DNA from: an uncultured Chlamydiae bacterium
Lineage (GTDB): Bacteria > Chlamydiota > Chlamydiia > Chlamydiales > SM23-39
NCBI GenBank assembly: GCA_963730605.1
Contig: CAVSSM010000011.1
Span: 32,001 to 96,000 of the forward strand
Direction of reading: 5' to 3'
DNA length: 64,000 nucleotides
The notes under the pieces were generated by a model. That model did no database searches, had not been told where the DNA came from, and saw only the letters and a list, made by a program, of their open reading frames with translations. Position 1 is the first letter of the stretch. Each line of letters opens with the position of its first letter. Made by a program: the position numbers and the translations under genes. Below, in pieces: positions 8,501 through 62,714 of the stretch.

Positions 8501-10039
8501 TCAGAGTTCCATTAATCTCATGTATTCATTGAGTTCAATCATAAATGCATCTCGATCTACGTCTGGATTACGATCTAGGAATACACCCGCAGCTTGAATG
8601 AGTTGAGCGCGACCTGCACCCTTGTTTTCAACTATCAATCCGGCAACGAGCTCATTTGTTGTTTTTCTGACGCCATCCACATTTACACCTTTAAGGCGAC
8701 CTTGAAGCACAGCTACGATCTGGCGTTGCGTCTGTCCAGGAGGACAAACCCTGCGGCCATGTTCTATCGAGTCGCTCAAAGCCTTAATTATTCCAAAGCG
8801 GCAATTTTCTTGTTCTTTTTTCTCAGATTGCTCATTCGCAAAAATCCAGAGTCGAGCAATCAACTCTTCTCCGGAAATGCTAAGACGACCGTTATCGATA
8901 GTATAAATAGCATTATTGAGTAAAGGAGCCCAATCCTCGTTCTCGGGTGGGCCATGAAGGGCTTGCTGAGCTGTGTTTTTAATGGCTGAATCACCTGCAT
9001 AAGCGTTTAAATATTGTTTAAATTCTTCTACAGCTGCACTGATCCTCGTTGGGTTGAGCAGTCCCTGATGCTTTCTTAGTAATTCGATGGCTTCTCTTGT
9101 TTTTGCATCGCGGCTACCATGATGCACATCGATTGCATTGTGCCCTTGCGCTGCCAACTCGGCCATCCCAGCGCAAAAGGGTGGAATCGGTTGATTTAGT
9201 GGTGTTTCCAATATAACGAGCATTCGATGAAGGATAGCTTCATTTTCTAAACCGTTAGCAAGATCTTGAATCTGATGTAATACTCTTTGCATGCGACCTG
9301 CTCTTTCGTTCCCAGCATTTGCAACCGTACCAATTATTAAGCATATCTGTAGGCTATCCATTTGTGGATGAATAAGACGAGATACAAGGTTAATAACTTG
9401 TTCGCGTTCATTTGCAGGGATGCTTGCAACCGAACGAATTATAAAGGATATTCCGATGCCATGCATTTGTGGATGAATAAGACGAGATACAAGGTGAGTA
9501 ACTTGTTCACGTCCATTTACAGGGATGCTTGCGGCCTCTGTAAATATAGCTGATATACTCATGGAAAGCATGTGTGGACGAATAAGACGAGATACAAGGT
9601 GAGTAACTTGTTCACGTTCATTTGCAGGGATTCTTGCAATGTCGCTAATTATCTGGAGTATATTGGTGGTGTTACACATTTGTGGGTAACGAGATACAAG
9701 GCCAATAACTTGTCCACGTTCATTTACAGGAATTCTTGCAACGGTTTCAATGATTGCATTACGCGTCCGGTCATCCATGTCCGGAATCATAAGGCCGGAT
9801 GCTTGGGCAGCAATTTGCTCGCGATTATTTGAAACAATCCTACCGCTATTCAAATCTCTTTCTCCCGATGTGTTTCTGCTTGAGGCGATGGCCCACAAAC
9901 AACCGATCCCTCCGATAGCAGTAAGGGCCAGCCCAATCGCTTCCATTTGATAAGCGACCGCAAGACCTGCCCCTCCTACACACCCAGCCACAAATTTGCA
10001 ATATCCCATTGTATTCTGGATTCTTATCCCTATTGACAT
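8501..10039 (-). CDS. Repeat-containing effector-like protein, paralog 1 (about 5 x 35-aa repeats)
   Basis: Low-GC 512 aa ORF; N-terminal hydrophobic hairpin, IPANEREQV repeats, C-terminal domain shared with paralog 2. Confidence 0.8.
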   Translation of the reverse strand: MSIGIRIQNTMGYCKFVAGCVGGAGLAVAYQMEAIGLALTAIGGIGCLWAIASSRNTSGERDLNSGRIVSNNREQIAAQASGLMIPDMDDRTRNAIIETVARIPVNERGQVIGLVSRYPQMCNTTNILQIISDIARIPANEREQVTHLVSRLIRPHMLSMSISAIFTEAASIPVNGREQVTHLVSRLIHPQMHGIGISFIIRSVASIPANEREQVINLVSRLIHPQMDSLQICLIIGTVANAGNERAGRMQRVLHQIQDLANGLENEAILHRMLVILETPLNQPIPPFCAGMAELAAQGHNAIDVHHGSRDAKTREAIELLRKHQGLLNPTRISAAVEEFKQYLNAYAGDSAIKNTAQQALHGPPENEDWAPLLNNAIYTIDNGRLSISGEELIARLWIFANEQSEKKEQENCRFGIIKALSDSIEHGRRVCPPGQTQRQIVAVLQGRLKGVNVDGVRKTTNELVAGLIVENKGAGRAQLIQAAGVFLDRNPDVDRDAFMIELNEYMRLMEL

Positions 10040-10180
10040 AAATCCCTATATTATTTTAATGTTAATGTTATAATAATTATGCATGTTTAAAATTATTTTG
10101 TCAACAAATTAATTAATAAAGATAAATTTTTTTATAGACACTGGTTTCCTGATTAAGGAGATATAGAAAACTATAAACTA

Positions 10181-10250
10181 TACCCCAAAGATGCATCATC
10201 TTTGGGGTAGGGCGCCGTCGGATTCACACTTTTTGAGCGGGAGCGGTATA
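10181..10250. repeat. 13-bp perfect hairpin followed by the right end of a family A element
   Basis: TACCCCAAAGATG-CAT-CATCTTTGGGGTA, then GATTCACACTTTTTGAGCGGGAGCGGTATA. Confidence 0.75.
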
Positions 10251-10252
10251 AA

Positions 10253-10416
10253 CTCGACTTTGTACAATTTTGTGACAGCATCTTCGAGAGAATCGCTGGC
10301 CTTTTTTCCTTTTTTTGCTCATAAATAGTGCCTTCGGCTATGAATTTCGCAAAAAAAGAAAAAAATTGCAGAGCGCTTCCTCTGGATCTGCTCGCCAAAA
10401 ATTGTACAAAGTCGAG
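10253..10416. mobile_element. Palindromic MITE-like element, family B (164 bp)
   Basis: 19-bp perfect TIR CTCGACTTTGTACAATTTT / AAAATTGTACAAAGTCGAG. Confidence 0.82.
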
Positions 10417-10422
10417 ATAAAA

Positions 10423-12264
10423 TCAGAGTTCCATTAATCTCATGTATTCATTGAGTTCAATCATAAATGCATCTCGATCTACGTCTGGATTACGATCTAG
10501 GAATACACCCGCAGCTTGAATGAGTTGAGCGCGACCTGCACCCTTGTTTTCAACTATCAATCCGGCAACGAGCTCATTTGTTGTTTTTCTGACGCCATCC
10601 ACATTTACACCTTTAAGGCGACCTTGAAGCACAGCTACGACCTGGCGTTGCGTCTGTCCAGGAGGACAAACCCTGCGGCCATGTTCTATCGAGTCGCTCA
10701 AAGCCTTAATTATTCCAAAGCGGCAATTTTCTTGTTCTTTTTTCTCAGATTGCTCATTCGCAAAAATCCAGAGTCGAGCAATCAACTCTTCTCCGGAAAT
10801 GCTAAGACGACCGTTATCGATAGTATAAATAGCATTATTGAGTAAAGGAGCCCAATCCTCGTTCTCGGGTGGGCCATGAAGGGCTTGCTGAGCTGTGTTT
10901 TTAATGGCTGAATCACCTGCATAAGCGTTTAAATATTGTTTAAATTCTTCTACAGCTGCACTGATCCTCGTTGGGTTGAGCAGTCCCTGATGCTTTCTTA
11001 GTAATTCGATGGCTTCTCTTGTTTTTGCATCGCGGCTACCATGATGCACATCGATTGCATGCGCCAACTCGGCCATCCCAGCGCGAAAGGGTGGAATCGG
11101 TGGATTTAGTGGTGTTTCCAATATAACGAGCATTCGATAAAGGATAGCTTCATTTTCTAAACCGTTAGCAAGATCTTGAGGAATCTGATGTAATACTCTT
11201 TGCACGCGAGCTTCTCTTTCGTTCCCAGCACGCGCAACTCTCGCAATTATTCTGCTTCTGTCCAAGGCATCCGTTTCTTGATTAATAAGCCTAAATGCCA
11301 GAGTAATAGCTTGTTCACGTTCATTTACAGGGATGCTCGCAACTGATTCAATTATAGAGTATGTTGCGATGCTAGGCATTTGTGGATGAATAAGGGGAGA
11401 TACAAGATTAATAAATTGTACACGTTCATTTGCAGGGATTCTAGCAAAGGTGGCAATTGTAATGCCGAAATTCGCTCTGTCTTGAGTAAAAAGACGAGAT
11501 GCAAGGTTAATAAATTGTACACGTTCATTTGCAGGGATGCTTGCAACCGCTTTAATTATAAAGTACATTTCAATGCTAGGCATTTGTGGATGAATAAGAC
11601 GAGATGCAAAATCCATAACTTGTTCACGTTCATTTGCAGGGGTGCTTGCAACTATTTGAATGATGAATGGTGTGGATGGGTCGTCTATTCTAGTAATCTG
11701 CAATGCAAGATTCATAACTTGTTCATGTTCATTTGCAGGGGTCCTTGCAAGCGTTTGAATTATCAAGCGTCTCACGGTGATACTCGTTTCTGTATTAATA
11801 AGACGAAATGCAAGGTTCATAACTTGTTCGCGGTTATTTGCTGGGATGCTTGCAACTGTTTTAATTATATTATATCTATCGCTGCTAAAAAGCGTTCCTG
11901 CTGGAGGCAAAAAACTAAGTGCAAGGTCAATAACTTGCTTGCGATCATGCGCGGGGATTCTTGCAACGGTTTCAATGATTGCATTACGCATCGGGGCATC
12001 CATGTCTGGATGTATAAGACCAGATGCTTGGGCAGCAATTTGCTCGCGATTATTTGAAACAATCCTACCGTTATTCAAATCTCTTTCTCCCGATGTGTTT
12101 CTGCTTGAGGCGATGGCCCATAAACAACCGATCCCTCCGATAGCAGTAAGGGCCAGCCCAATCGCTCCCATTTGATAAGCGACCGCAAGACCTGCCCCTC
12201 CTACACACCCAGCCGCCAATTTGCAATATTCCATTGTATTCTGGATTCTTATCCCTATTGACAT
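10423..12264 (-). CDS. Repeat-containing effector-like protein, paralog 2 (about 8 x 35-aa repeats)
   Basis: 613 aa ORF with the same architecture as 8501-10039. Confidence 0.8.
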   Translation of the reverse strand: MSIGIRIQNTMEYCKLAAGCVGGAGLAVAYQMGAIGLALTAIGGIGCLWAIASSRNTSGERDLNNGRIVSNNREQIAAQASGLIHPDMDAPMRNAIIETVARIPAHDRKQVIDLALSFLPPAGTLFSSDRYNIIKTVASIPANNREQVMNLAFRLINTETSITVRRLIIQTLARTPANEHEQVMNLALQITRIDDPSTPFIIQIVASTPANEREQVMDFASRLIHPQMPSIEMYFIIKAVASIPANERVQFINLASRLFTQDRANFGITIATFARIPANERVQFINLVSPLIHPQMPSIATYSIIESVASIPVNEREQAITLAFRLINQETDALDRSRIIARVARAGNEREARVQRVLHQIPQDLANGLENEAILYRMLVILETPLNPPIPPFRAGMAELAHAIDVHHGSRDAKTREAIELLRKHQGLLNPTRISAAVEEFKQYLNAYAGDSAIKNTAQQALHGPPENEDWAPLLNNAIYTIDNGRLSISGEELIARLWIFANEQSEKKEQENCRFGIIKALSDSIEHGRRVCPPGQTQRQVVAVLQGRLKGVNVDGVRKTTNELVAGLIVENKGAGRAQLIQAAGVFLDRNPDVDRDAFMIELNEYMRLMEL

Positions 12265-19330: not shown

Positions 19331-22199
19331 TTAATGCTGAATGAATTGTTTTTGCCGCTGTACTTTCGAGAGCGCCTCTTGCAATTTTTGCTGGTGGGAT
19401 TGAGGGACCATCTCGAAGCGGAAGATATCGCGGGCGATCCCCTCCCTCAAGCGGATCGAAAAAGCTTCGAAAAGAGCAAACGATTCGTGTTTGAATTCGA
19501 GAAGGGGGTCTTTTTGACCTACGGTGCGCATATGGACATCGGAGCGGAGATGGTCGATGTGGAGGAGATGCTCCTGCCAGAGTTGGTCGATTTTCCGCGC
19601 CATTAGGTTGCGGATCACCTCGCCCAGGACATTTTGCGCCTTTTCAGCATCGGGAATGTCGGGACGATAGTGCACCAGCAGCTCGCGCTGAAAAAGGAGC
19701 TTTTGGCGGAAGGCGGCGATAACTTTAGCGGCCGCCTTCTCATCCTGGTCGCAGTCGGCGGTTTCCAGGCTCACCGGAAAATGATTCATGAGGGCTGCAG
19801 TCAACTGCTCAGGGCTGCCCGTTTTTTCCTGCGGGTGTGATGCGGCCATGTGACTGACGACAGCTTGCAGGATGTCTTCGGCGATCTCGATCGGCTTTTC
19901 GGCAAAGAGGAGCTCGTTGCGGAAAGCGTAGACCTCTTTCCTCTGCTTATTCATCACATCGTCGTATTCAAGAGTATGCTTACGGATGGAATAGTTGCGT
20001 TGTTCGACCCGCTTTTGCGCCGTTTCGATCGACTTGTTAAGCACTTTCGCCGAGATCGGCTCTCCTTCCGGAGGGCGGAACCTTTGCAGCAGGGAGGTCA
20101 TCCGGGGGGAGGCGAAGAGGCGCATAAGGGGGTCTTCAAAAGAGACGTAGAATTTGGAGGAGCCGGGGTCGCCGAGACGCCCTCCCCGGCCGCGGAGCTG
20201 CCGGTCGATCCTGCGGGAGTGATGGCGGGTCGTGCCGATCACATGGAGGCCGCCGAGCTCGCGCACTCCCTCTTTCAGTTTGATGTCGGTTCCGCGGCCG
20301 GCCATATTGGTGGCGAGCGTGATCGCGCCCATCTTGCCCGCATCGGCGATGATTTCGGCCTCTTTTGCGTGGTTCTTTGCATTGAGGATCGTGTGCTCGA
20401 GTTTGTTCTGCTTGAGGATGCGAGAGAGCTTTTCCGATGTTTCCACCGATTCGGTGCCGATGAGGATGGGACGCCCCTTTTCGTGGATTTCCTTGATCTC
20501 CTTGAGGATCGCGTTATATTTTTCCCGCTCGGTCATATAGATCTCGTCATCTCTATCGATTCTCTGGCAGGAGCGGTAGGTAGGGATTTCGAGAACTTGG
20601 AGTTTGTAGATTTCTTTGAATTCATTCGCCTCGGTCATGGCCGTTCCGGTCATGCCCGAGAGCCTTTCGTACATGCGGAAGTAGTTTTGCAGCGTAATCG
20701 TGGCATAGGTTTGCGTTTCGCCCTGGATGGCGACGTCTTCTTTCGCTTCGATCGCTTGGTGAAGGCCATCGGAAAAGCGGCGTCCGGGCTGCGGGCCGCC
20801 CCGTGTTTTCGTCGATGATGACGATCTTGTGGTCCTGGACGATGTAATCGATGTCTTTTTCCATGAGGAGATGGGCGCGGAGCATCTGCCGTAAGTTGTG
20901 GGAGCGCTCTTTGCGCTTGGCGTCGTTTTCGCGTAAACCAATCTTGGCTGTCATTTTTTCTTGTTCATTCAACGAGCCGTTTTGATCGATGACGGCATAT
21001 TCGTGCCCGAGGTCAAGCATGGTGAAATCATCAGCTCCGGACCCGTTTTGGAATTCGCTCCATGCCTGGATCCCTTTGTCGGTCAGCTCATATTCGTTGT
21101 TTCTTTCATCGACGACCATATAGAGCTCAGCGAGAGCGGCGAATTTTTCCTCTTTATTCTGTTCGCCGAAGTAGTAGGTTTCCCAGTTGTCGATCTCTTG
21201 CGCGAAGATCGGGGTTTTCCTTGATCCGCTTCAGGATCTTGTTGCGCGGCGTTCCCTTGTTGACGAGCCACAATTTCCGGAAGGCTTCTTTTTTCTTCTC
21301 TTCGTCTTCTTTGCCAAGCTTCTGTGGCGCTTCCTGGTTTTCTTCGATGAGATGCAAGCGATTCGAGAATTTTGCGCGCTTCGGTCGCCAGCCGGTTGCA
21401 TGAGTCTCGCTGGATGCGGACGAGATGGGCCACGCCCTCTTTCAGTTCATCGTACATCTGGCGGCTTTCGGGGACGGGTCCTGAAATGATGAGCGGGGTG
21501 CGCGCTTCGTCGATCAGGATCGAATCGATCTCGTCGACCATCGCGAAATAATGCCCCTCGCTGCACTTGCTCGTTTCGATTCATCGACATCGAATTGTCG
21601 CGGAGGTAGTCGAACCCGAATTCGGAAGCAGTGCCGTACACGATGTCGCTTGCGTACGTTTCTTTGCGCCGGTGGAGAGGAACATCATTCGTCAAATAGG
21701 AAACGGTCATCCCGAGGCTCCGGAAGATCGAGCCGATCCATTCACAGTCGCGCTTGGCGAGATAGTCGTTGACGGTGACAAGGTGGACCGGCTTCCCGGT
21801 CAAGGCATGGAGATAGAGTGGCATCGAGGCGGTGAGGGTTTTTCCTTCGCCCGTCTGCATTTCAGCGATCGAGCCATAGAACATCGCGATCGCGCCCAGG
21901 ATCTGGACGTCGTAGGGAATCATGTCCCACTTTTGCTCATAGCCCGAGACGTGGACGTCAGTGCCGCAAAGGCGCCGGCAGACGTTCTTGACCGCACCGA
22001 ACGCCTCCGGGAGAAGCGATTCCAAAGGTTCCCCTTTCGCTAACCGCTCCTTGAATTCAACCGTCTTCGCTGCAATTTGGACATCGCTTAAGCTGCGGTA
22101 TTTTTCTTCCCAAGCGTTCACCTGAGGCACAAGGCGCCAATACCGGTTCAAAAAACGGGATTGGTGTGTTCCGAAGATTTTTTTTAAGAGACCAAACAT
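19331..22199 (-). CDS. secA: Preprotein translocase SecA, broken into 5 ORFs by frameshifts (probably assembly errors)
   Basis: [39 protein letters not shown] and [10 protein letters not shown] motifs lie in successive frames. Confidence 0.92.
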
Positions 22200-32924: not shown

Positions 32925-34295
32925 TTAGTCGAGCCAGAAGTTGGTTTGGGCTTGGGCTTGGTTGAGGAACATCTCTTCCCCGTGGACGATGCGGCAGCCA
33001 AGGCGTTGGGCTTCTTTTAAGAAAGACGTTTCTTTCGGGGCAATGACAATATCCATCACTAGAGAAGTAGAGGGAATGTCGATGGGCATGGGATCGGGCG
33101 AGCAATTGATCAAGATGTCGGCATCCAGAGGGATATCTTCAAGGCCGCCGGAGGCCCCGCCGACTGCGGCGGCAAGTTCTTCCGCACGAGAGCGCGTCCG
33201 GTTCAAGATGAGGACGTGGGCCCCGCGCGCGGTTGCTTCGAAGGCGATGCCGCGAGCTGCGCCGCCGGCTCCGATCAGGACGACTTTCTTGCCTTTTACT
33301 TTTAGTTGTTTTTCGATCGCGTCGAGAGCGCCGGTGCCGTCGGTATTCGTCCCATAGATGCGCCCTCCTTTGAAAAGAAGCGTGTTCACCGCGAGAGTGG
33401 CGCGTGTTTTGGCGTCCATTTCATCGACGAAGGGGAGGATTTTTTCTTTGAGAGGGATCGTGACGCTCAGGCCCCGGATTCCTAGTTCCTTGGCATAGCG
33501 GATAAAGGTTTCCAGCTCTTCCGGGTTGACGATCATTTTAATGTAAACCGCATTTACATTGCGTTTCTGGAAGACGCCGTTATGGTAAATGTGCCCCGGG
33601 CTTTTGGCTACGGGATTCCCGATGAGGCCATAAATATCCGTGTGGGTATTCAGGGAGGGATAGCGGTAGATATCGACGAGGTCTTGGATAGAAATCTGCC
33701 CGGGGGCTGTAGGCTGATCGCCTTTGAGTACAGCATAGTCTAGAAGGTTGCCTGCGACTTTGCCGAGTACGCGGGCGAACTTTCCTTTTTCCCCCATGCA
33801 GATCGCGCTTGCCCCGGGGTGCTTTTTCGCGAAAAGGAGCATCCGGAGCGCGTCGTTTGCGGAAGTAGCCATGACGGCGATTTTGCAGGTAAAGGGGGAG
33901 TGCCGAGATAAGGTTGTATAGATCTCGTGGAGGTTTTCGGGCGTTTTTTCAAAATCGTGATGGGAGAGGACGAAACGGGTTTTGGGATGAGACTGTGTGG
34001 CTTTGAGCAGAAATGCGGGCCTCATATCTCCTTCGAGATCGAAAAAGGGGGGCGAGAAGGCAAGCAGCCGCTCGATGAGGCCTTCCCGCTCCTCTTCCGT
34101 CCCATGGAACTTCCCGCCCTGGGAGGGTTTACGCAAGGTGAGCATTACAGGAAGTGGGGAGGCGCTAAGAAACTTTTTAATCTCTTCCAGGTCGATCTTG
34201 GGGCAAAGATCCAGGCGTAGCTCAAGTCCCTCTACAGCAGGAGGCAGATCCTTGGGAATATCGGGATTAGAGAGGGATGTAAAAAGCATGGACAT
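32925..34295 (-). CDS. aroDE: Bifunctional type I dehydroquinate dehydratase / shikimate dehydrogenase
   Basis: ELRLD, SHHDF and TAPGQ (AroD); SVTIPLK, NTDG and GAGGAA (AroE). Confidence 0.9.
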   Translation of the reverse strand: MSMLFTSLSNPDIPKDLPPAVEGLELRLDLCPKIDLEEIKKFLSASPLPVMLTLRKPSQGGKFHGTEEEREGLIERLLAFSPPFFDLEGDMRPAFLLKATQSHPKTRFVLSHHDFEKTPENLHEIYTTLSRHSPFTCKIAVMATSANDALRMLLFAKKHPGASAICMGEKGKFARVLGKVAGNLLDYAVLKGDQPTAPGQISIQDLVDIYRYPSLNTHTDIYGLIGNPVAKSPGHIYHNGVFQKRNVNAVYIKMIVNPEELETFIRYAKELGIRGLSVTIPLKEKILPFVDEMDAKTRATLAVNTLLFKGGRIYGTNTDGTGALDAIEKQLKVKGKKVVLIGAGGAARGIAFEATARGAHVLILNRTRSRAEELAAAVGGASGGLEDIPLDADILINCSPDPMPIDIPSTSLVMDIVIAPKETSFLKEAQRLGCRIVHGEEMFLNQAQAQTNFWLD

Positions 34296-34318
34296 CGATC
34301 CTTCAAATGTGATACAAT
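34289..34318 (+). promoter_or_regulatory. Probable sigma66/sigma70-type promoter of the aromatic operon
   Basis: TGGACA-N18-TACAAT with extended TGn. Confidence 0.45.
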
Positions 34319-34328
34319 CTAGTTTATC

Positions 34329-34427
34329 ATGAGCAAGAACGCAAGGATCACATCCTCGACCAGATTAGTTTTGGGCACTCAGCTTGCTCCCGCTTATTCA
34401 TTCTATTTCTTCTATTTTGGCGCATAG
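34329..34427 (+). CDS. Phe/Tyr-rich leader peptide (probable attenuator uORF), 32 aa
   Basis: MSKNARITSSTRLVLGTQLAPAYSFYFFYFGA*; stop codon sits in the hairpin TTTGGCGC-ATA-GCGCCAAA, followed by a T-rich tract. Confidence 0.75.
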   Translation: MSKNARITSSTRLVLGTQLAPAYSFYFFYFGA

Positions 34428-34493
34428 CGCCAAATTCATTTGTTTTTTCTATCAGATTCTTAACCCAAAAAACAAACTAGAGGAAATAGTACT

Positions 34494-35498
34494 ATGCTTA
34501 TCAAAATTAAAAAATCAGCTCATGCTGACGATATCCAGATCATTCGCCAATTGTTGGACCGCCACAATTTAGGACATCGCGTCATTGGAGAGACACTCAT
34601 TGGAGTGGAGTCGAATCCATCCGAGGAAGTCACGCGCGAACTCAATACTCTGCGTGCTGTCGAAAACGCAACGCCGATCGCCTCGCCCTATAAATTGGCG
34701 AGCCTTGCGGCCCATCCGGAAAAAACAGTGATCCGCATCGGCGATGTCGAAATAGGCGGCAAGGCTGTCGTCTTGATGGCCGGGCCTTGCGCTATCGAAA
34801 GCCAGGAGCAGCTCGAAGCGGTGGCCGAAGGGTTGAAAGGAACCGGCGTTTCGGTCCTGCGCGCCTCCGCGTACAAACCGCGCACTTCTCCCTACAGTTT
34901 CCAAGGGATGGGTGAAGAGGGATTGAAGCTCCATGCAAAAGCAAAGTCCAAGCACGGCCTTCTCATCGAAACGGAAGTGATGGATATAAGAGACGTGGCT
35001 CTTGTGGCCTCCCACGTAGATATCATCCGGATCGGGGCGCGAAACATGCAGAATTTCGATCTTTTGAAAGCGGTCGGAAAATGTGGAAAGCCGGTCATTT
35101 TGAAGCGGGGCATGTCGGCCACGATCGAAGAGTGGCTCATGAGCGCCGAGTACATCATCGCCCACGGCAATCCCGATGTGATTTTGTGCGAGCGGGGCAT
35201 CCGGACCTTCGAGAACGCAACGCGAAGCACCTTGGATCTCAGCAGCATTCCGGTTTTGAAGAGCCTCACCCACTTGCCTGTGATCGTAGATCCGAGCCAC
35301 GCCGCAGGGCGCAAGGATTTGATCCCGGCGCTCTCTTGCGCGGCGATCGCCGCTGGGGCGGACGGGCTTCTCGTCGAGGTTCATGCGAATCCGAAAAAAG
35401 CCAAATGCGATGGAAAACAGGCCCTTTTACCGTATGAATGGGCCGAGCTAGTTGCGCAACTTAGAAAAGTCGCGATTGCAATGGGGAGGTCGATGTGA
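34494..35498 (+). CDS. aroF: DAHP synthase class I-beta
   Basis: AGPCAIES, KPRTSPYSFQG, IGARNMQNF and DPSH motifs. Confidence 0.93.
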   Translation: MLIKIKKSAHADDIQIIRQLLDRHNLGHRVIGETLIGVESNPSEEVTRELNTLRAVENATPIASPYKLASLAAHPEKTVIRIGDVEIGGKAVVLMAGPCAIESQEQLEAVAEGLKGTGVSVLRASAYKPRTSPYSFQGMGEEGLKLHAKAKSKHGLLIETEVMDIRDVALVASHVDIIRIGARNMQNFDLLKAVGKCGKPVILKRGMSATIEEWLMSAEYIIAHGNPDVILCERGIRTFENATRSTLDLSSIPVLKSLTHLPVIVDPSHAAGRKDLIPALSCAAIAAGADGLLVEVHANPKKAKCDGKQALLPYEWAELVAQLRKVAIAMGRSM

Positions 35499-35767
35499 AA
35501 CTCGACGATTTGAGAAAAGAGATCGATGCGCTCAACCGCGAGCTCGTAGAGCTGTTAGGGAAAAGGATCGAGGTGGCCCGCAAGGTTGTCAGGATCAAAA
35601 AGGAAGGGCAGCTTCCCATCTTGGATGTAGATCGGGAACAGGAGATTAAGGATGAGATGCGCCAGCTTGCAAGGGCAAGCCGGATCAGCGCATCTTTTAT
35701 CGAAGAGATTTTCGATTTGCTTCTCGAATACACCCGTCTTGAAATGGAAATGGAGGCGGCAAAATGA
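35495..35767 (+). CDS. Chorismate mutase (AroQ type)
   Basis: LDDLRKEIDALN...KR...K...DREQE pattern. Confidence 0.88.
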   Translation: MKLDDLRKEIDALNRELVELLGKRIEVARKVVRIKKEGQLPILDVDREQEIKDEMRQLARASRISASFIEEIFDLLLEYTRLEMEMEAAK

Positions 35768-37341
35768 TGAAGATCGGCATCATCGGATCGGGACTCATGG
35801 GAGGGTCTCTTCAAAAAGGGATCGCCAATGGAATCGCCAAGGGAATCGATGGGGTTTTGCTCGAGGGCGATTGGATCGAAAAGATCGAAGAGATCGACAT
35901 TTTGATTTTGGCTACTCCGATCACCGCCATTTTGGAAATCGCTGAAAAAATTGCAAAGCGGCGAGCTCGAAAAAAACTTCTTGTCCTCGATATCGGAAGC
36001 GTCAAGAAGAGGATTACGGAAACATTCGAAAAACTGACAGACGGCTTTGTTAAATTTCTTGGGAGCCATCCAATGGCAGGCACAGAAAAAAGCGGATACG
36101 AAAACAGCGACCCCAAGATTTTTCAGGGAGCCGTCTGGGTGATCACGCCTCATAACAAGAACACTGAAGGCTCAATGACAGTGGCCGAAGAGTTGATCCG
36201 CAGCCTTGGCGCAAAGCCGATGCGGATGGATGCGGCGGAGCACGACCGGCGGGCCGCGATCATCTCTCAACTCCCTTATCTCATTTCAAAGACGCTTTTC
36301 GATTTTGTCGATCCCGAAAGCCTTGCAATGGCGGGGCCGGGGTTCAAGTCAATGATTCGGCTCGCCGCCGATAATTTGGAAATGCGAAGAGAACTCGGCC
36401 GCTACAACCGAGAGAATATTGCACATTGCCTGAAACAGTATATTGACTCATTAACAAATTTGCTAGGATCTGAAATGCAGGAAGCGAAGCGAACGGAATG
36501 CGATCCTGCTTCAGGATCGCCAAAGAACTACAGTTTCCGGAGGAATCCTATGAAGAAAATCGCATATCAAGGGGTCCCAGGATCATATAGCCATATGACG
36601 GCGCTTCGCCTCTTTGGGACCGAGGCTGCTTTCTTGGGGCTTTCCCAATTTTCGGACGTGATCGAAGCCGTTGAAAAGGGATCTGCAGACGCCGCCCTTC
36701 TTGCCATCGAGAACACGCTCATCGGGCCGATCTATGAGGTGCTGGATTTAATTGGGGAAAGCACGTTGGAGATCAATGGGGAGACGCCGACGCGGATCGA
36801 ACATTGCCTTCTGACTCTTCCGGATGCGGAGATCGAAGAGATCCGAACCGTTTATTCTCATCCGAAGGCGTTGGGGCAATGCCTGAAGTTTTTCCGCAAA
36901 CACCCTAACCTCCTCCCTGAAGCCTATGTCGATACGGCAGCCGCTGCCGGCTTTGTCGCGAAAAAGAAAGATCCAAGTGCGGCCGCGATCGCAAGCAGGA
37001 TGGCGGGATCGATCCATGGGCTCAAAGTGTGCTTGGCGAACATCGAAGACAACCCCGAAAATTTCACCCGCTTTCTCTTGCTTTCGACAAAACCCTCAGA
37101 GGGTCCGAAATGCACGATCCGGATCACTTTGGAACATAAGCCCGGAAAGCTCGCGGAGATCCTTTCGGTCATTTCCAAGGAGGGGGTCAATGTCACCTCC
37201 ATCATCTCTCGCCCCCTCATCGGCCGTCCGTTCGAATACGCTTTTTACCTCGATCTCGAAACGCCGAGCGTGTCCCTCCTCGAAGAGATCAAGGGAAAAT
37301 CCAAAACCTTCCGGAACTTAGGCCGCTACGGTGCATTATGA
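35764..37341 (+). CDS. Prephenate dehydrogenase (TyrA) fused to prephenate dehydratase-ACT (PheA)
   Basis: GSGLMGGS, DIGSVK and HPMAG; then IAYQGVPGSYS, IENT, SHPKALGQC and NFTRF; internal ATG with GGAGG at 36550. Confidence 0.85.
   Translation: MMKIGIIGSGLMGGSLQKGIANGIAKGIDGVLLEGDWIEKIEEIDILILATPITAILEIAEKIAKRRARKKLLVLDIGSVKKRITETFEKLTDGFVKFLGSHPMAGTEKSGYENSDPKIFQGAVWVITPHNKNTEGSMTVAEELIRSLGAKPMRMDAAEHDRRAAIISQLPYLISKTLFDFVDPESLAMAGPGFKSMIRLAADNLEMRRELGRYNRENIAHCLKQYIDSLTNLLGSEMQEAKRTECDPASGSPKNYSFRRNPMKKIAYQGVPGSYSHMTALRLFGTEAAFLGLSQFSDVIEAVEKGSADAALLAIENTLIGPIYEVLDLIGESTLEINGETPTRIEHCLLTLPDAEIEEIRTVYSHPKALGQCLKFFRKHPNLLPEAYVDTAAAAGFVAKKKDPSAAAIASRMAGSIHGLKVCLANIEDNPENFTRFLLLSTKPSEGPKCTIRITLEHKPGKLAEILSVISKEGVNVTSIISRPLIGRPFEYAFYLDLETPSVSLLEEIKGKSKTFRNLGRYGAL
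36464..36550. mobile_element. 87-bp palindromic element forming the TyrA-PheA linker
   Basis: TAGGAT...ATCCTA ends; perfect internal hairpin GCGATCCTG-CTT-CAGGATCGC; GAAGCGAAGCGAA motif shared with 51084-51250. Confidence 0.65.
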
Positions 37342-38459
37342 GAACGTTCAATCCATCCGCGACAAACGCGGTCAACGCCGAGATGAACCGCTTGCGCAAA
37401 TCGGGGGTGCGTATCTACAATTTCGGGTCGGGCGATCCGGTCGTTCCGAACCATCCGGCTGTCTTGAAAGAGGTCGAAAAAGCGGTTAAGGAACAGATAA
37501 GCCCTTATGCTCCTGTCGGAGGCCTTCTCGAGCTCCGCGAGGCGGCGGCGGAATGGATGAATTGCCGTTACGGCAGCCATTTCGGGGTCGATCAGACGAT
37601 CGTTACCTGCGGAGGGAAATTCGCTCTCTTTGCCGCCCTCGAGGTACTCTTGAATCCGGGAGAAGAGGTTCTGTTCGCGGCGCCTTACTGGCCCTCCTAC
37701 CCTGACATCGTACGGCTTGCCGGAGGCATTCCAAAGCCGATCGTCCTCGACGAAAAAACAGATTGGAAAATCACTCCGGAGGATATAAAGCGTCATGCTG
37801 GAAAAAAAACAGCCGTGTTTCTTTTCAATAATGGATGCAATCCGACCGGCGCTCTCTATTCAAAAGAGGAGGTCGCCGCCCTTCTCAAAGCCGCTAATCA
37901 GGCGGGGCTTTATGTGGTCGCAGATGAGGTCTACAGCGAAATGGTTTACGATGGCGCGAAATATGTTTCATGCGCCGCCTTTGCCGAATATGGCTCTCGC
38001 ACCGTGATCATCGAAAGCTGTTCGAAGAATTTCGCGATGGCCGGATACAGAGTGGGTTTTGCGTTCGCAGGCCACGAGATCATTAAGAACATGATCGCCG
38101 TCCAAAGCCAGTCGACGACCGGAACTTCCCACATCAGCCAACGGGCGGCGCTCGCTGCTCTTCGCCACTCAAGAGAGGCCGCGGCGCTTGTGCAGGGTGC
38201 GATGGACCGGAGGCGGAAGCTCTTTTTCCGCACCTATAACGAGCTTTTCGGCACCTCGTATAAGCCCCCCGCATCCACCCTCTATTTCTTCGTGAAAATC
38301 AAGGGGACCTGCGAGGAGATTCTCAAAAGGGCCCATGTCGCCTTAGTGCCGGGCAGCGCGTTCGGGCTCGATGGCTATGCCCGCTTTGCCTTTTCGGAGA
38401 GCGAAGAGGATATCGTTCTTGGACTGAAAGCGTTTAAAGCTTTTGAAGAGCGAGCGTAA
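37338..38459 (+). CDS. Class I/II PLP aminotransferase (aspartate/aromatic)
   Basis: NPTG, DEVY and SCSKNFAMAGYRVG motifs. Confidence 0.9.
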   Translation: MRTFNPSATNAVNAEMNRLRKSGVRIYNFGSGDPVVPNHPAVLKEVEKAVKEQISPYAPVGGLLELREAAAEWMNCRYGSHFGVDQTIVTCGGKFALFAALEVLLNPGEEVLFAAPYWPSYPDIVRLAGGIPKPIVLDEKTDWKITPEDIKRHAGKKTAVFLFNNGCNPTGALYSKEEVAALLKAANQAGLYVVADEVYSEMVYDGAKYVSCAAFAEYGSRTVIIESCSKNFAMAGYRVGFAFAGHEIIKNMIAVQSQSTTGTSHISQRAALAALRHSREAAALVQGAMDRRRKLFFRTYNELFGTSYKPPASTLYFFVKIKGTCEEILKRAHVALVPGSAFGLDGYARFAFSESEEDIVLGLKAFKAFEERA

Positions 38460-59492: not shown

Positions 59493-61223
59493 ATGCAGGC
59501 TTTGTCTCTACCGAAGAGGATGATTGCAGCAGACCCGAGGATTGCAGGCCGTCAATCCAGGCTCGAAATCCTGGAAGAGCAGATCTACAAAGAAGATGAG
59601 CAGCTGCTTAAAGATGTATATCGATACGATACTTCCCTCAGGCCGGAAGATTTCGCCCAGCCTCCATGCGAAGAGGGAAAAAGTCGGGAGAGAATCCGAA
59701 GCGAAAGGGATTTTCACGGCCAGTGGATTGGATTGCAAAAAGCGAGAGAAGCTGCCGAACAAGCGCGAAGCGAACTCTCGCATTTAAACACAGACCAGGG
59801 CGAAAAGATATTCGATTCCGATGCGCCTCTTTTGATCGCCGATGCCTTGATCAAAGATCAGTTTCTATGGGAAGAAAAACACAGGACCCTCCATTACTGC
59901 TCGGATTTATTTTGGCGATGGGACGGGGTGAGATATGTCGAATTGAGCGAAGGCGGAATGCGACAGAGAATTTACGGTTTTTTAAGGGATGCCAAAGACA
60001 TAAGCGGTGGAAATTTGGAAAATTTCAATCCCACCAAATTTAAAGTGGACCAGATCGTCGATGCTCTTCGCGCGGTCTGCCATCACGACCACCATCCGTC
60101 CAGCGGAGAGATTTGGCTGGATGATCGTGAAGGTCCCGATCCTCAATATCTCATCTCATTCCGCAACGGCCTGCTCAACGTGAAGGATTGGCTCGAAAAT
60201 CCCCACGTCTCTCTCATGCCGCATACGCCGTTATTGATGAACGTAAACTCCCTGACATTCGATTACGACCCCAGAGCCGCGGAGCCGCAAGAGTGGCTGC
60301 GATTTCTGGAATCAATCTGGCCTGGAGATCCGGAAAGCCAAGGAACCCTTCAAGAATGGACGGGTTATTTTCTCATACACGATACTCGCCTCCATAAAAT
60401 TCTTCTCATCATAGGACCGCCAAGAAGCGGAAAAGGAACCATCGGACGCTGCCTGATGGAACTGCTGGGCTCCTTCAATGTGATCGGACCTACGCTTTCC
60501 AGTCTTGCCGGAGATTTTGGCCTTCAGCCTTTCTTGAATAAAATGCTCGCTCTGATCTCAGACGCCCGTTTGAGCAGCAGAGGAAACAATAGCGTGATCA
60601 TCGAAAGGCTTCTCAGCATCAGCGGCGAAGATCCTCTGACCATCAATCGCAAATTCCTTCCGCCTCTGACGGTTCAGCTGCCTACCCGGATCATGATGAT
60701 GAGCAACGAAATCCCGGATATGCGGGACGCAAGCGGAGCCCTCGCGAAACGATATAGAGTATTGACGCTGACGAAAAGCTGGCTCGGCAAAGAAGATACA
60801 GCCCTTCTTGGCCGGCTCCGCGCAGAGCTGCCAGGCATTTTACTATGGGCCCTGCAAGGACTCGCCCGATTGCAGGCAAGGGGGAAATTCATCCAGCCCG
60901 CATCATCCGCCCAAACCATCGAAGAACTCGAAGCCATGACCAGCCCGATCAAGGCTTTCATTGCCGAAAGATGCGAATTCAAACCGCAGGCGATGGTTTC
61001 CGTGGCTGCTCTATTCGCAACTTGGCAGTCTTGGTGCGAGGTCACAGGTTATCCTCATGCCGGGAATGTGCAATCTTTTGGCAAAAACCTTCGAGCGGCC
61101 TTTCCTGAAATCGAGACGACCAGGCCGCAGGAAGATCAAACCAGGGAGAGGTGTTACAAGGGCATCAGTCTTGGCGCCACCCCTAATCCGTCCACGGACG
61201 TCCGCGGACCAAGATGGGAATGA
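59493..61223 (+). CDS. P4/D5-family primase-helicase C-terminal part (D5_N plus SF3 helicase)
   Basis: ISFRNGLL, Walker A GPPRSGKGT, MMSNE and ILLWALQG motifs. Confidence 0.88.
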   Translation: MQALSLPKRMIAADPRIAGRQSRLEILEEQIYKEDEQLLKDVYRYDTSLRPEDFAQPPCEEGKSRERIRSERDFHGQWIGLQKAREAAEQARSELSHLNTDQGEKIFDSDAPLLIADALIKDQFLWEEKHRTLHYCSDLFWRWDGVRYVELSEGGMRQRIYGFLRDAKDISGGNLENFNPTKFKVDQIVDALRAVCHHDHHPSSGEIWLDDREGPDPQYLISFRNGLLNVKDWLENPHVSLMPHTPLLMNVNSLTFDYDPRAAEPQEWLRFLESIWPGDPESQGTLQEWTGYFLIHDTRLHKILLIIGPPRSGKGTIGRCLMELLGSFNVIGPTLSSLAGDFGLQPFLNKMLALISDARLSSRGNNSVIIERLLSISGEDPLTINRKFLPPLTVQLPTRIMMMSNEIPDMRDASGALAKRYRVLTLTKSWLGKEDTALLGRLRAELPGILLWALQGLARLQARGKFIQPASSAQTIEELEAMTSPIKAFIAERCEFKPQAMVSVAALFATWQSWCEVTGYPHAGNVQSFGKNLRAAFPEIETTRPQEDQTRERCYKGISLGATPNPSTDVRGPRWE

Positions 61224-61337
61224 CCCCATGGAAAATGAAGAGATAGCCGTGCAGCATGGCTTAGCTTCCTGATTATTAATTTCTTGAGACAAAAATTTTG
61301 CTTTCCTGTAATCTATATGTTACAATTGAGGTAGAGA

Positions 61338-61673
61338 ATGGAATATACCCTGAAGGTCTATGAGACTCCTAATGGAGCGCAGCCGCTGATGGACTGGCTC
61401 CGTGAACTGAGAGACCAAAAAGCGCGCACAGCCATTCGGATGCGATTAGACCGCATGCAGCTCGGAAACTTTGGACATTGCGAACCGGTCGGCGAAGGGG
61501 TGAGCGAGATGAAAGTAGACCTGGGGCCGGGATATAGGGTGTATTTTGGAATGATCGGACGCACCATTGTTCTTCTCCTGTGCGGAGGAGACAAGAAAAG
61601 CCAAGATAAAGATATCCGGCGCGCGCTGGACTTTTTTAGAGATCATAAGCAGCGGGAGAAGGCAGATGGTTAA
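61338..61673 (+). CDS. RelE/HigB-type addiction module toxin
   Basis: RLDRMQLGNFG...GVSEMKVDLGPGYRVYF...LLCGGDKKSQDKDI. Confidence 0.9.
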   Translation: MEYTLKVYETPNGAQPLMDWLRELRDQKARTAIRMRLDRMQLGNFGHCEPVGEGVSEMKVDLGPGYRVYFGMIGRTIVLLLCGGDKKSQDKDIRRALDFFRDHKQREKADG

Positions 61674-61967
61674 ATACAGAGACTACAAAGAAGAGCTGAT
61701 CGATGATCTGAAAGATCACGATGAAGCGGTTGCTTATCTTAATGCTGCATGGGAAGAGAGCTTAAAAGGGGATGAAGAATCTCAACAGCTCTTTCTTCTT
61801 GCGCTTCGCAACGTTGCTGAGGCCCAGGGAGGGCTGGGAAACTCGCCCGAAGGGTGCGTATTCGGAGGGAACAACTGTATCGTATCCTTTCGCGAAGAGG
61901 CAACCCAGGTCTGAGGATTGTCAGATCTCTGCTCATTGCCCTGGGCTTTAATCTAAAATTCGTCTAG
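61666..61967 (+). CDS. HTH addiction module antitoxin, 1-nt frameshift in an A-run near 61840
   Basis: AVAYLNAA...ALRNVAEAQGG, then LARRVRIRREQLYRILSRRGNP in a shifted frame. Confidence 0.82.
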
Positions 61968-62228
61968 CAATTTGCTTGCTCGCCTAGTGGCCGCTTCTGG
62001 AAGAGCATCTTACCGGTTATTTATGATCAAGATCTTGTTCTTAGGCGTCCGTTCAAATTTAAAAGTCTGATTTTCAGTCCATTCGATTTGTGACTGAATT
62101 GTGACTGCTGACTTCCCTTCGCTTGAATTCTATCTGTTGGTTTGTGTTGGATTTTATAAATTAACTTAAAATTATTTTAATGTGTTATTAATTGAAATTA
62201 TCCTGAAAATTTATGTGATCGAATAAAC

Positions 62229-62714
62229 ATGTCAGCGCCAAAAGGCCACAAACTATACAACGGATACGAAAAAGGCGGCGACCTCGGCGGCCGGCCCGAA
62301 AAGTATACTCAAGAGAAAATCGAGCAGGAAGCCGGTGCCTTTCTCGAATGGATGGCTCGTCCCGACAGCATCTGGTACAAAGATTTTGCGCTCGAAAGAG
62401 GCTATTCCGCCGAATATCTCTCCATCTGGGCCAAATCGAACAAAAGGTTTTCTCAAGTTTATGAGAGAGCCAAGGAATGGCAGCAATCCAAGCTCGTCAA
62501 GGGCGGTCTTCTCAATCAATTCAATGCGGGATTCACGAAATTCGTGATGTCCAACACGTGCGGTTGGACTGACAGGCAGCAAATCTCCGGGGACGCCGCT
62601 AATCCCCTTTCCCTTCTATTGCAAAAAGTAGACGGCGGCACGAAGGATCTCGTCGATGGCCATAAGGATGAGAAGCTTTGTCTTGGGTCGAAAAGCCTTC
62701 CGAACCTCTGCTAA
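62229..62714 (+). CDS. Phage terminase small subunit-like protein; C-terminus runs into the adjacent pseudogene
   Basis: APKG...GRPEKYT N-terminus and KFVMSN..GWTDRQ motif resembling small terminase subunits. Confidence 0.6.
   Translation: MSAPKGHKLYNGYEKGGDLGGRPEKYTQEKIEQEAGAFLEWMARPDSIWYKDFALERGYSAEYLSIWAKSNKRFSQVYERAKEWQQSKLVKGGLLNQFNAGFTKFVMSNTCGWTDRQQISGDAANPLSLLLQKVDGGTKDLVDGHKDEKLCLGSKSLPNLC

Follow-up and report, generated by a model that had tools for sequence, protein, structure and literature searches.

A conserved phenylalanine- and tyrosine-rich leader open reading frame ahead of aroF operons in Chlamydiota and its possible read-outs

The stretch of DNA considered here (64,000 nt, hereafter the window; NCBI GenBank assembly GCA_963730605.1, contig CAVSSM010000011.1, positions 32,001 to 96,000 of the forward strand) is from an uncultured Chlamydiae bacterium. 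It carries an operon for the synthesis of phenylalanine (Phe, F) and tyrosine (Tyr, Y) that begins with aroF and is preceded by a short open reading frame (ORF) rich in Phe and Tyr codons. This leader ORF was found to be conserved before orthologous operons in other Chlamydiota, and was examined for the way in which it may control the genes behind it.

The leader ORF at the aroF locus

The features of the locus are listed in Table 1. A preliminary description of the window had reported an ORF running from ATG 34329 to TAG 34427 with four Phe and three Tyr codons among eight consecutive codons, and a TGnTACAAT -10 box ending 10 nt before the ATG, and the sequence agrees on each point. The ORF lacks a Shine-Dalgarno (SD) sequence, is near-leaderless, and encodes a peptide with the C-terminus YSFYFFYFGA. 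This density is above what chance would give. When 11,618 intergenic small-ORF starts of the whole genome were scored, at least six F/Y codons in ten were found in 18 distinct ORFs and seven in ten were found in two, one of them the leader ORF of the window. A look for RNA evidence at a relative's locus gave no listed data set for L087, and four runs with 151-nt pieces from the coding part left the leader uncovered, which bears neither way on expression.

Table 1. Coordinates of the leader, the operon and the divergent gene in the window
Feature	Position	Strand	Remarks
aroDE fusion (dehydroquinase-shikimate dehydrogenase)	32925..34295	-	Divergent, outside leader control; TIGR00507 above cut-off
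Sigma-70-type promoter, TGGACA-18-TACAAT with TG extension	34289..34318	+	Overlaps the divergent aroDE start
Leader ORF, 32 codons, encodes MSKNARITSSTRLVLGTQLAPAYSFYFFYFGA	34329..34427	+	TAG at 34425-34427
5' YASAY copy, CACAT	34349..34353	+	20 nt past the start codon
Phe/Tyr regulatory codons, YSFYFFYF	34395..34418	+	4 Phe and 3 Tyr in 8 codons
Anti-SD arm, CTATTTCTTCTA	34403..34414	+	Inside the F/Y codons; 12-bp minimum free energy helix with 34478-34489
GGCGC/GCGCC hairpin, 8 bp	34416..34434	+	Stop codon across the loop; not a terminator
G-poor, C/U/A-rich spacer resembling a Rho utilization (rut) site, holds CTATCAGAT	34435..34477	+
3' YASAY copy, CAGAT	34453-34457	+	Inside the spacer
aroF ribosome-binding region, TAGAGGAAATAG	34478..34489	+	SD GAGGA; predicted partner of the F/Y codons
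aroF, type I-beta DAHP synthase	34494..35498	+	First regulated gene; NF006421 and TIGR01361 above cut-off
Chorismate mutase	35495..35767	+	TIGR01803 and others, under cut-offs
tyrA (prephenate dehydrogenase) and pheA (prephenate dehydratase), joined	35764..37341	+	Frame of 525 amino acids (aa)
Pyridoxal phosphate-dependent aminotransferase	37338..38459	+	Last gene of the operon

Conservation, translation and sequence signals of the leader

Conservation of an F/Y-rich upstream ORF (uORF) before aroF in other Chlamydiota had been put forward as a check on the preliminary description, and the searches took in 61 relatives together with 103 genomes of the family and 400 of the phylum. An aroF gene of the same clade as that of the window (E ≤ 1e-98) was identified in 46 genomes, one copy lying at a contig edge, and 39 of the 45 usable orthologous operons proved to be headed by an ORF rich in F/Y codons, the end of which lies at a GGCGC hairpin. 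The 39 leaders are spread over five families (f1, f7, f10, f31 and f33), and include one that is degenerate (L075) and one with its start cut off (L077). Counts given below refer to the 38 complete leaders that remain when L077 is omitted. Also omitted were G414 and G108, where the contig ends before the leader. L078 was left out of alignment A2, and G131 was unscored.

The leader homologues are 27-43 codons long with in-frame insertions and deletions, and contain 5-10 F/Y codons. Both Phe and Tyr codons are present in 38/38, with Trp codons as well in five. The distance from the GGC of the hairpin to the start codon of the first gene was used to separate 16 long leaders (>115 nt, a cut set after inspection of the data) from 22 short ones, with means of 6.3 and 6.8 F/Y, respectively, among the last ten codons. 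Equivalent promoters precede all 38 leaders (scores of 9-13 out of 13). The near-leaderless character proposed for the uORF holds for the window and not for the family, as 11 of the 38 leaders start 6-10 nt past the -10 box and the remainder start 22-58 nt past it.

Signs of translation were sought in these leaders. The first ATG or GTG past the best promoter opens the F/Y frame, and that frame stays open, in 29/38, as against 4/38 and 2/38 for an open start in the other two frames. In the last seven codons, T occupies codon position 1 in 238 of 266 cases, and A was found 101 times at codon position 2 versus three times at position 3. The start, the frame and the F/Y run are thus conserved as would be expected under selection, and a short ORF carrying codons for the end products lies in the leader of the operon, as in attenuators in the broad sense. 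The leader ORF is very probably a translated sensor of Phe and/or Tyr.

The leader follows the head of the operon, because in two cases (L087 and L088) it precedes an ilvE-like gene that lies ahead of aroF. No leader was found before six of the 45 aroF orthologues. In one of these genomes (G350) aroF is internal to an operon, the head of which was not included, and for the other five a match to PDT (pheA) was found in none of the genomes, which are 82-96% complete. PDT matches were present in 30 of 34 leader-bearing genomes of one sample, the overall figure being 52 of 400 genomes.

A search with the leader pattern gave matches in 35 of 401 genomes, and 14 new loci were inspected. Further leaders were added in this way, one before chorismate mutase and pheA genes (L208) and two before eroded operons (L190 and L193). 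A full F/Y leader was also found before a gene encoding 387 aa (L179:1440-1600; G340, family f43), the product of which matched no Pfam entry and the genome of which gave no PDT match, and a Phe-only leader (FMFFFF; MSKSILMPLLKRFMFFFFGAPAPAIFLFY) before a permease gene of the Trp/Tyr family (L203:619-720; G027:C64) in a genome that is 84% complete and in which pheA was not found. The other inspected loci were rejected as chance hits. An RNA model of the leader identified at least one copy in the genome of the window and matches in at least 10 of 80 genomes, though it undercounts copies because 60 candidates were scored per genome.

In the genome of the window, no such leader was found before the three TyrP-like genes or the trpR-led operon, nor was one found before trp-linked aroF paralogues, which are internal genes. 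The second aroF of this genome lies at the end of the trpR-led trp operon (G000:C2:209484-216600) with no leader peptide seen upstream. In L190, L193, L091 and L092 an intact leader stands before an eroded operon or a split aroF. Eight aroF orthologues encode proteins of ~270 aa that lack the N-terminal regulatory domain (L035, L036, L037, L072, L074, L007, L034 and L076), and the leader is kept in five of them and absent in three. Variant leaders ending in Y-Y-F-W-R were seen in L077 and L078 (family f33), where extra GGCG/CGCC segments would permit alternative long helices.

The stop codon of the window leader had been placed within an 8-bp hairpin followed directly by TTCATTTGTTTTTTC, which is indeed the arrangement in the sequence. 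In the alignment of this hairpin, 89% of cells are paired and no compensatory changes occur, so that covariation neither supports nor refutes it. However, the GGCGC hairpin is retained across shifted reading frames (L064, L075, L077 and L078), indicating that the constraint acts at the nucleotide level. By naming pheL as a precedent, the preliminary description had implied that the hairpin and its tail form a terminator with a U-tract. No intrinsic terminator was detected in any of the 38 leaders, whereas an identical scan detected one in 11 of 18 non-chlamydial F/Y leaders, drawn from 78 non-chlamydial aroF loci and devoid of the GGCGC core pattern. The 8 nt past the chlamydial hairpin include 1-5 T, and several leaders are C-rich there. 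Judged by their sequences, the 38 leaders would operate without the usual transcription terminator. The mixed Phe/Tyr attenuator proposed for an intracellular lineage is thus well supported as regards the conserved Phe/Tyr leader peptide and unsupported as regards a pheL-like terminator. Among the Rfam leader models, no family came near its gathering score in the window, 16 related loci matched unrelated T-boxes only, and no match to the T-box riboswitch (RF00230) was found upstream of the operon.

The 45 nt past the hairpin contain a mean of 11.9 C and 2.8 G, with C at least three times as frequent as G in 32/38. The corresponding genome-wide means for post-stop regions, a background that includes coding DNA, are 10.6 C and 10.4 G, and regions with no more than two G and at least eight C make up 0.2% of them. 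The tract looks like a Rho loading site beside the leader stop codon, as in Rho-dependent attenuators, and a rho gene is present in the genome, where it occupies two overlapping pieces (G000:C9:176720-177890), probably owing to assembly indels. A YASAY motif occurs at two positions, namely at +19 to +24 of the uORF start in 24/38 leaders (versus 2.8% of 1,411 genes) and at GGC+31 to +36 in 32/38, and is found in differing reading frames. Both the G-poor tract and the 3' YASAY copy are common to short and long leaders. Candidate roles for YASAY are a polymerase pause, an RNase E-type site or a protein-binding site, the consensus for RNase E being RN↓WUU.

Predicted pairing of the F/Y codons with the aroF ribosome-binding site and alternative read-outs

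Folding of the window leader was better than that of 200 of 200 shuffled sequences (z -3.55). Folding of alternative structures had been suggested as a further check, and the two pairings named near the aroF ribosome-binding site (RBS) can be formed, though weakly, at -5.5 and -5.6 kcal/mol for the segments as clipped. The stable helix predicted is instead one that had been missed, in which the F/Y codons themselves pair with the RBS (-12.6 kcal/mol). Pairing as strong with the run of the window was found in 16 of 1,411 gene start windows of the genome. In the 22 short leaders, the mean pairing with the RBS window is -13.9 for the F/Y segment, compared with -7.1 for the upstream 27 nt and -6.1 for the spacer, and pairing of the codons with the SD of the first gene beats shuffles of the leader's own RBS window (≤0.05) in 17 of them. 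Over 39 leaders, the mean for duplexes of each leader with its own partner is -11.0, compared with -8.7 for within-family permutations, and none of 20,000 permutations was as low. The helix sequences vary between leaders, one extending to 20 bp (L052) and another having an AAC codon matched by GTT (L072).

Masking by a ribosome on the F/Y codons lowers the predicted cost of opening the RBS in short leaders from 11.5 to 5.9 kcal/mol, with a drop of at least 3 in 19/22, while the cost is 11.2 kcal/mol with the ribosome at codon 7. For the window leader, folding gives a fall from 13.0 to about 4-8 kcal/mol with a ribosome on the run. In four short leaders with the stop codon 18-21 or 24 nt further on (L031, L032, L033 and L058), a ribosome at the stop codon lets the helix re-form, at an opening cost of 11.8-13.7 kcal/mol.

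On this modelling, the window leader is probably a translational attenuator that depends on ribosome dwell and on pairing between the F/Y codons and the aroF RBS. When the run is free of ribosomes, the 12-bp helix would close the aroF SD. If charged tRNA-Phe or tRNA-Tyr is scarce, ribosomes would wait on the run and cover the anti-SD arm, allowing initiation at aroF, with the coupled genes following. If both charged tRNAs are plentiful, the ribosome would finish and depart, and the helix would re-form, leaving aroF untranslated. Rho may then load on the naked C-rich, G-poor RNA and silence the rest of the operon by polarity.

Several findings weigh against this interpretation. The permutation figure overstates independence, because a swap test on 11 tree-independent pairs of short leaders gave a mixed outcome, with five pairs clearly negative, five near zero (mostly near-identical sisters) and one positive. 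Among the long leaders, the helix beats shuffles in one of 16 and does not in the other 15, the RBS opening cost changes from 6.5 to 5.4 kcal/mol under a ribosome on the F/Y codons, and a switch is seen in 3/16. The Phe-only leader L203 is likewise without the helix (-4.2). As the long leaders mostly lack it, anti-SD pairing cannot be the mechanism of the whole family. In the window, a ribosome at the stop codon also masks the arm (3.8 kcal/mol), and discrimination would therefore have to come from dwell time. A fallback helix with the spacer leaves the SD ~0.2-0.35 unpaired in most stalled states, so the switch need not be all-or-none. Finally, the Tyr codon in the aroR leader of Corynebacterium glutamicum reportedly conferred no sensing of Tyr (PMC11802643).

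The main rival to dwell-dependent pairing is Rho-dependent termination, because the long leaders without the helix keep the C-rich tract and YASAY. The leader would be the same translated Phe/Tyr sensor but with termination as its primary output, the stalled ribosome hiding a rut site formed by the U/C-rich run and the C-rich spacer, the hairpin and YASAY acting as pause or loading points, and the anti-SD helix being a secondary addition in short leaders. This is consistent with the conservation of the G-poor tract and the 3' YASAY in 32/38 leaders each, irrespective of leader length, with the rarity of such G-poor, C-containing regions after stop codons, and with the absence of intrinsic terminators where rho is present, and the same idea has been put forward for actinobacterial cys leaders (PMC1262725). 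However, it leaves the partner-specific helices of 17/22 short leaders unexplained, much of the C-rich tract would lie 3' of the footprint of the stalled ribosome (taken as ~13 nt), and AT-rich intergenic DNA is G-poor in any case, the background having included coding DNA. As an account of the primary output it is considered possible but doubtful, though Rho termination is the better guess for long leaders.

It is improbable that the ORF is incidental and the pyrimidine run simply an anti-SD arm that spells Phe and Tyr because anti-SD sequences are U-rich, with an RNA-binding protein or a small RNA opening it at the two YASAY sites. Arms rich in U and C do give codons for F, S, L and Y whichever frame is read, the conservation of YASAY is one of nucleotides across frames, and in many leaders the uORF start is not preceded by an SD. 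Yet conservation extends to the start codon, the frame and the pattern of codon positions, the amino acids of the run are those that the operon makes, and the run survives in the long leaders that lack the helix (6.3 of ten codons).

A classical attenuator of the pheL type, with the GGCGC hairpin and a U-rich tail, or else a downstream hairpin, as the intrinsic terminator, is very unlikely. A scan of the sequence does label 34416-34434 as terminator-like, and terminators do follow F/Y leaders ahead of aroF in Bacillota and other groups (11 of 18), but by the same test there are none in the 38 chlamydial leaders, the T content past the hairpin is low (1-5 in 8 nt, with several leaders C-rich), and the folds contain no conserved antiterminator. 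The pheL leader itself works through terminator and antiterminator hairpins, which are absent here. Arrest of the nascent peptide as in TnaC, with F-Y-F-G-A-stop sensing a free aromatic metabolite in the exit tunnel, can hardly be credited either, for although FYFG[AV]-stop is the commonest leader ending, the stop codon is displaced by 18-24 nt in 10/38 leaders, GGCGC is read as W-R in another frame in three of those ten and in L077, the N-terminal part is not conserved, and arrest by free product would, under the helix model, turn a biosynthetic operon the wrong way.

A combined scheme may be offered tentatively. The Chlamydiota may possess a terminator-free, ribosome-sensing module of their own, composed of the F/Y run, the hairpin around the stop codon, the C-rich spacer and YASAY, the last placed ~20 nt downstream of the start codon and again of the hairpin. 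Its core would gate Rho by way of a paused polymerase or some RNA-binding factor, and in short leaders the same codons would repeatedly have been wired to the RBS to give a second lock, on translation. Governing Phe/Tyr synthesis and, in its Phe-only form, an aromatic permease, such a module might amount to an aromatic 'ribulon' that reads the amino acid supply of the host.

Genomic surroundings, novelty and known counterparts

The aroF, chorismate mutase, tyrA, pheA and aminotransferase genes listed downstream of the leader in the preliminary description were all identified, except that tyrA and pheA are not two genes but share one frame. They are joined because an element of ~77 bp is inserted at their junction, and an assembly frameshift was ruled out as the source of the fusion in favour of this insertion. 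pheA retains an RBS-like GGAGG of its own despite the joined frame, and tyrA and pheA are separate genes in a close relative (L097). The repeat (window 36466-36555) has an internal palindrome, with copies of 82-87% identity at C2:172497 and C2:374416 and a tandem array of four units at C1:87137-87449, and is possibly a small mobile element that carries an RBS-like end. The best hit for the divergent aroDE product was PRK09310, under the cut-off.

Marker genes in the genome, namely those for Hc1, the ATP/ADP translocase (three strong matches) and Chlam_OMP (a weak match), support its placement in Chlamydiota. PF03504, PF04518 and PF05302 gave no match, in searches that had no working control. 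Elsewhere in the window, a gene in several pieces at 19331-22199 is presumably secA-like, given its motifs, and was probably broken by assembly indels. A D5/DUF5906 primase-like gene and a GP3 DNA-packaging gene at 59493-62714 are likely to represent a prophage remnant, and a small ORF pair within that region is taken to be RelE/HigB-like. Two tandem paralogous ORFs at 8501-12264 (512 and 613 aa) are nearly identical at the N-terminus and gave no match in Pfam.

In the sources consulted, amino acid control in chlamydiae is described for Trp, through TrpR and predicted trpL genes (PMC3937554, which names Simkania negevensis as having the full aromatic pathway) and through the Trp-dependent YtgR (PMC7755916), and the portion of PMC4833913 that was available holds nothing relevant on chlamydial Phe/Tyr leaders. 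No Phe/Tyr leader in Chlamydiota was found in the full-text literature, most subscription journals and supplements aside, though the tables of PMC8632094, which include Chlamydiae genomes, or genome-wide attenuator predictions could list one. The leader is real and conserved and, for Chlamydiota, apparently unpublished. It is built from known principles of ribosome-mediated attenuation, which limits the surprise. If the interpretation is correct, chlamydiae of the environment adjust their Phe/Tyr synthesis, within the host, to how far the tRNAs are charged, and the design in which the codons are the anti-SD, described in Actinomycetota, extends to a further phylum and to a pair of amino acids. 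Short and long leaders would form a natural pair for the study of one sensor wired either to translation or to Rho, and YASAY offers a handle on pausing or RNA-binding factors in Chlamydiota.

Leader ORFs rich in F/Y, some also in W, were also seen before aroF in Clostridia, Megasphaera, Oscillibacter, Erysipelotrichia and Acholeplasmataceae. The 14 loci concerned (L107, L124, L126, L134, L152, L155, L156, L162, L165, L171, L173, L175, L137 and L142) have intrinsic terminators in many cases and FWG.YFSAGYF as a common motif, and no Rfam leader match was obtained in the eight that were scanned. On a contig labelled Woesearchaeota (L098), MTSLAKTNKFWSFKLDSFAYFFYYFG lies ~200 nt before aroF, with no terminator found and weak RBS pairing.

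Among known systems, the aroR leader before aroF in C. glutamicum was reportedly described by Neshat et al. 2014. It resembles the chlamydial leader in that Phe and Tyr codons lie in a leader directly before a DAHP synthase operon and are read out by ribosome stalling (PMC11802643, PMC4046766). By the same description, aroR has only F-Y-F, whereas the chlamydial leader has a longer F/Y run, no intrinsic terminator and, in its short forms, the predicted codon:RBS helix, and PMC11802643 describes aroR as acting on transcription, with a response to Phe and no effect of Tyr supply. The pheL/pheA system of Escherichia coli, named in that source, likewise has a short Phe-rich leader peptide before Phe biosynthesis genes. 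In Acholeplasma, uORFC-13-1 is a uORF with Phe codons before aroF but is followed by an intrinsic terminator, which the chlamydial leader lacks (PMC8632094).

Two actinobacterial systems show the direct use of the codons as a pairing partner that is predicted for the chlamydial leader. In the LEU element before leuA (PMC1262725), the run of regulatory codons and the first gene's SD together make up a base stem, though the codons are for Leu and a pseudoknot is present, whereas none was seen, or looked for, in the chlamydial leader. In Ms5788A of Mycobacterium smegmatis, Cys codons pair with the next SD, and control of initiation was shown by reporters (10.1101/834739). There, as in the chlamydial leader, the regulatory codons lie at the 3' end of a short, leaderless or near-leaderless ORF, the stop codon comes right past the run, and a spacer of 60-100 nt follows without a terminator. 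Polarity acts downstream in Ms5788A and is likely to do so in the chlamydial operon. Ms5788A, however, senses Cys and belongs to Actinomycetota, while the chlamydial leader is predicted to respond to two amino acids and, unlike Ms5788A as described, carries YASAY motifs, a C-rich tract and a hairpin that is conserved at its stop codon. By analogy of design, Ms5788A appears to be the best mechanistic match to the chlamydial leader.

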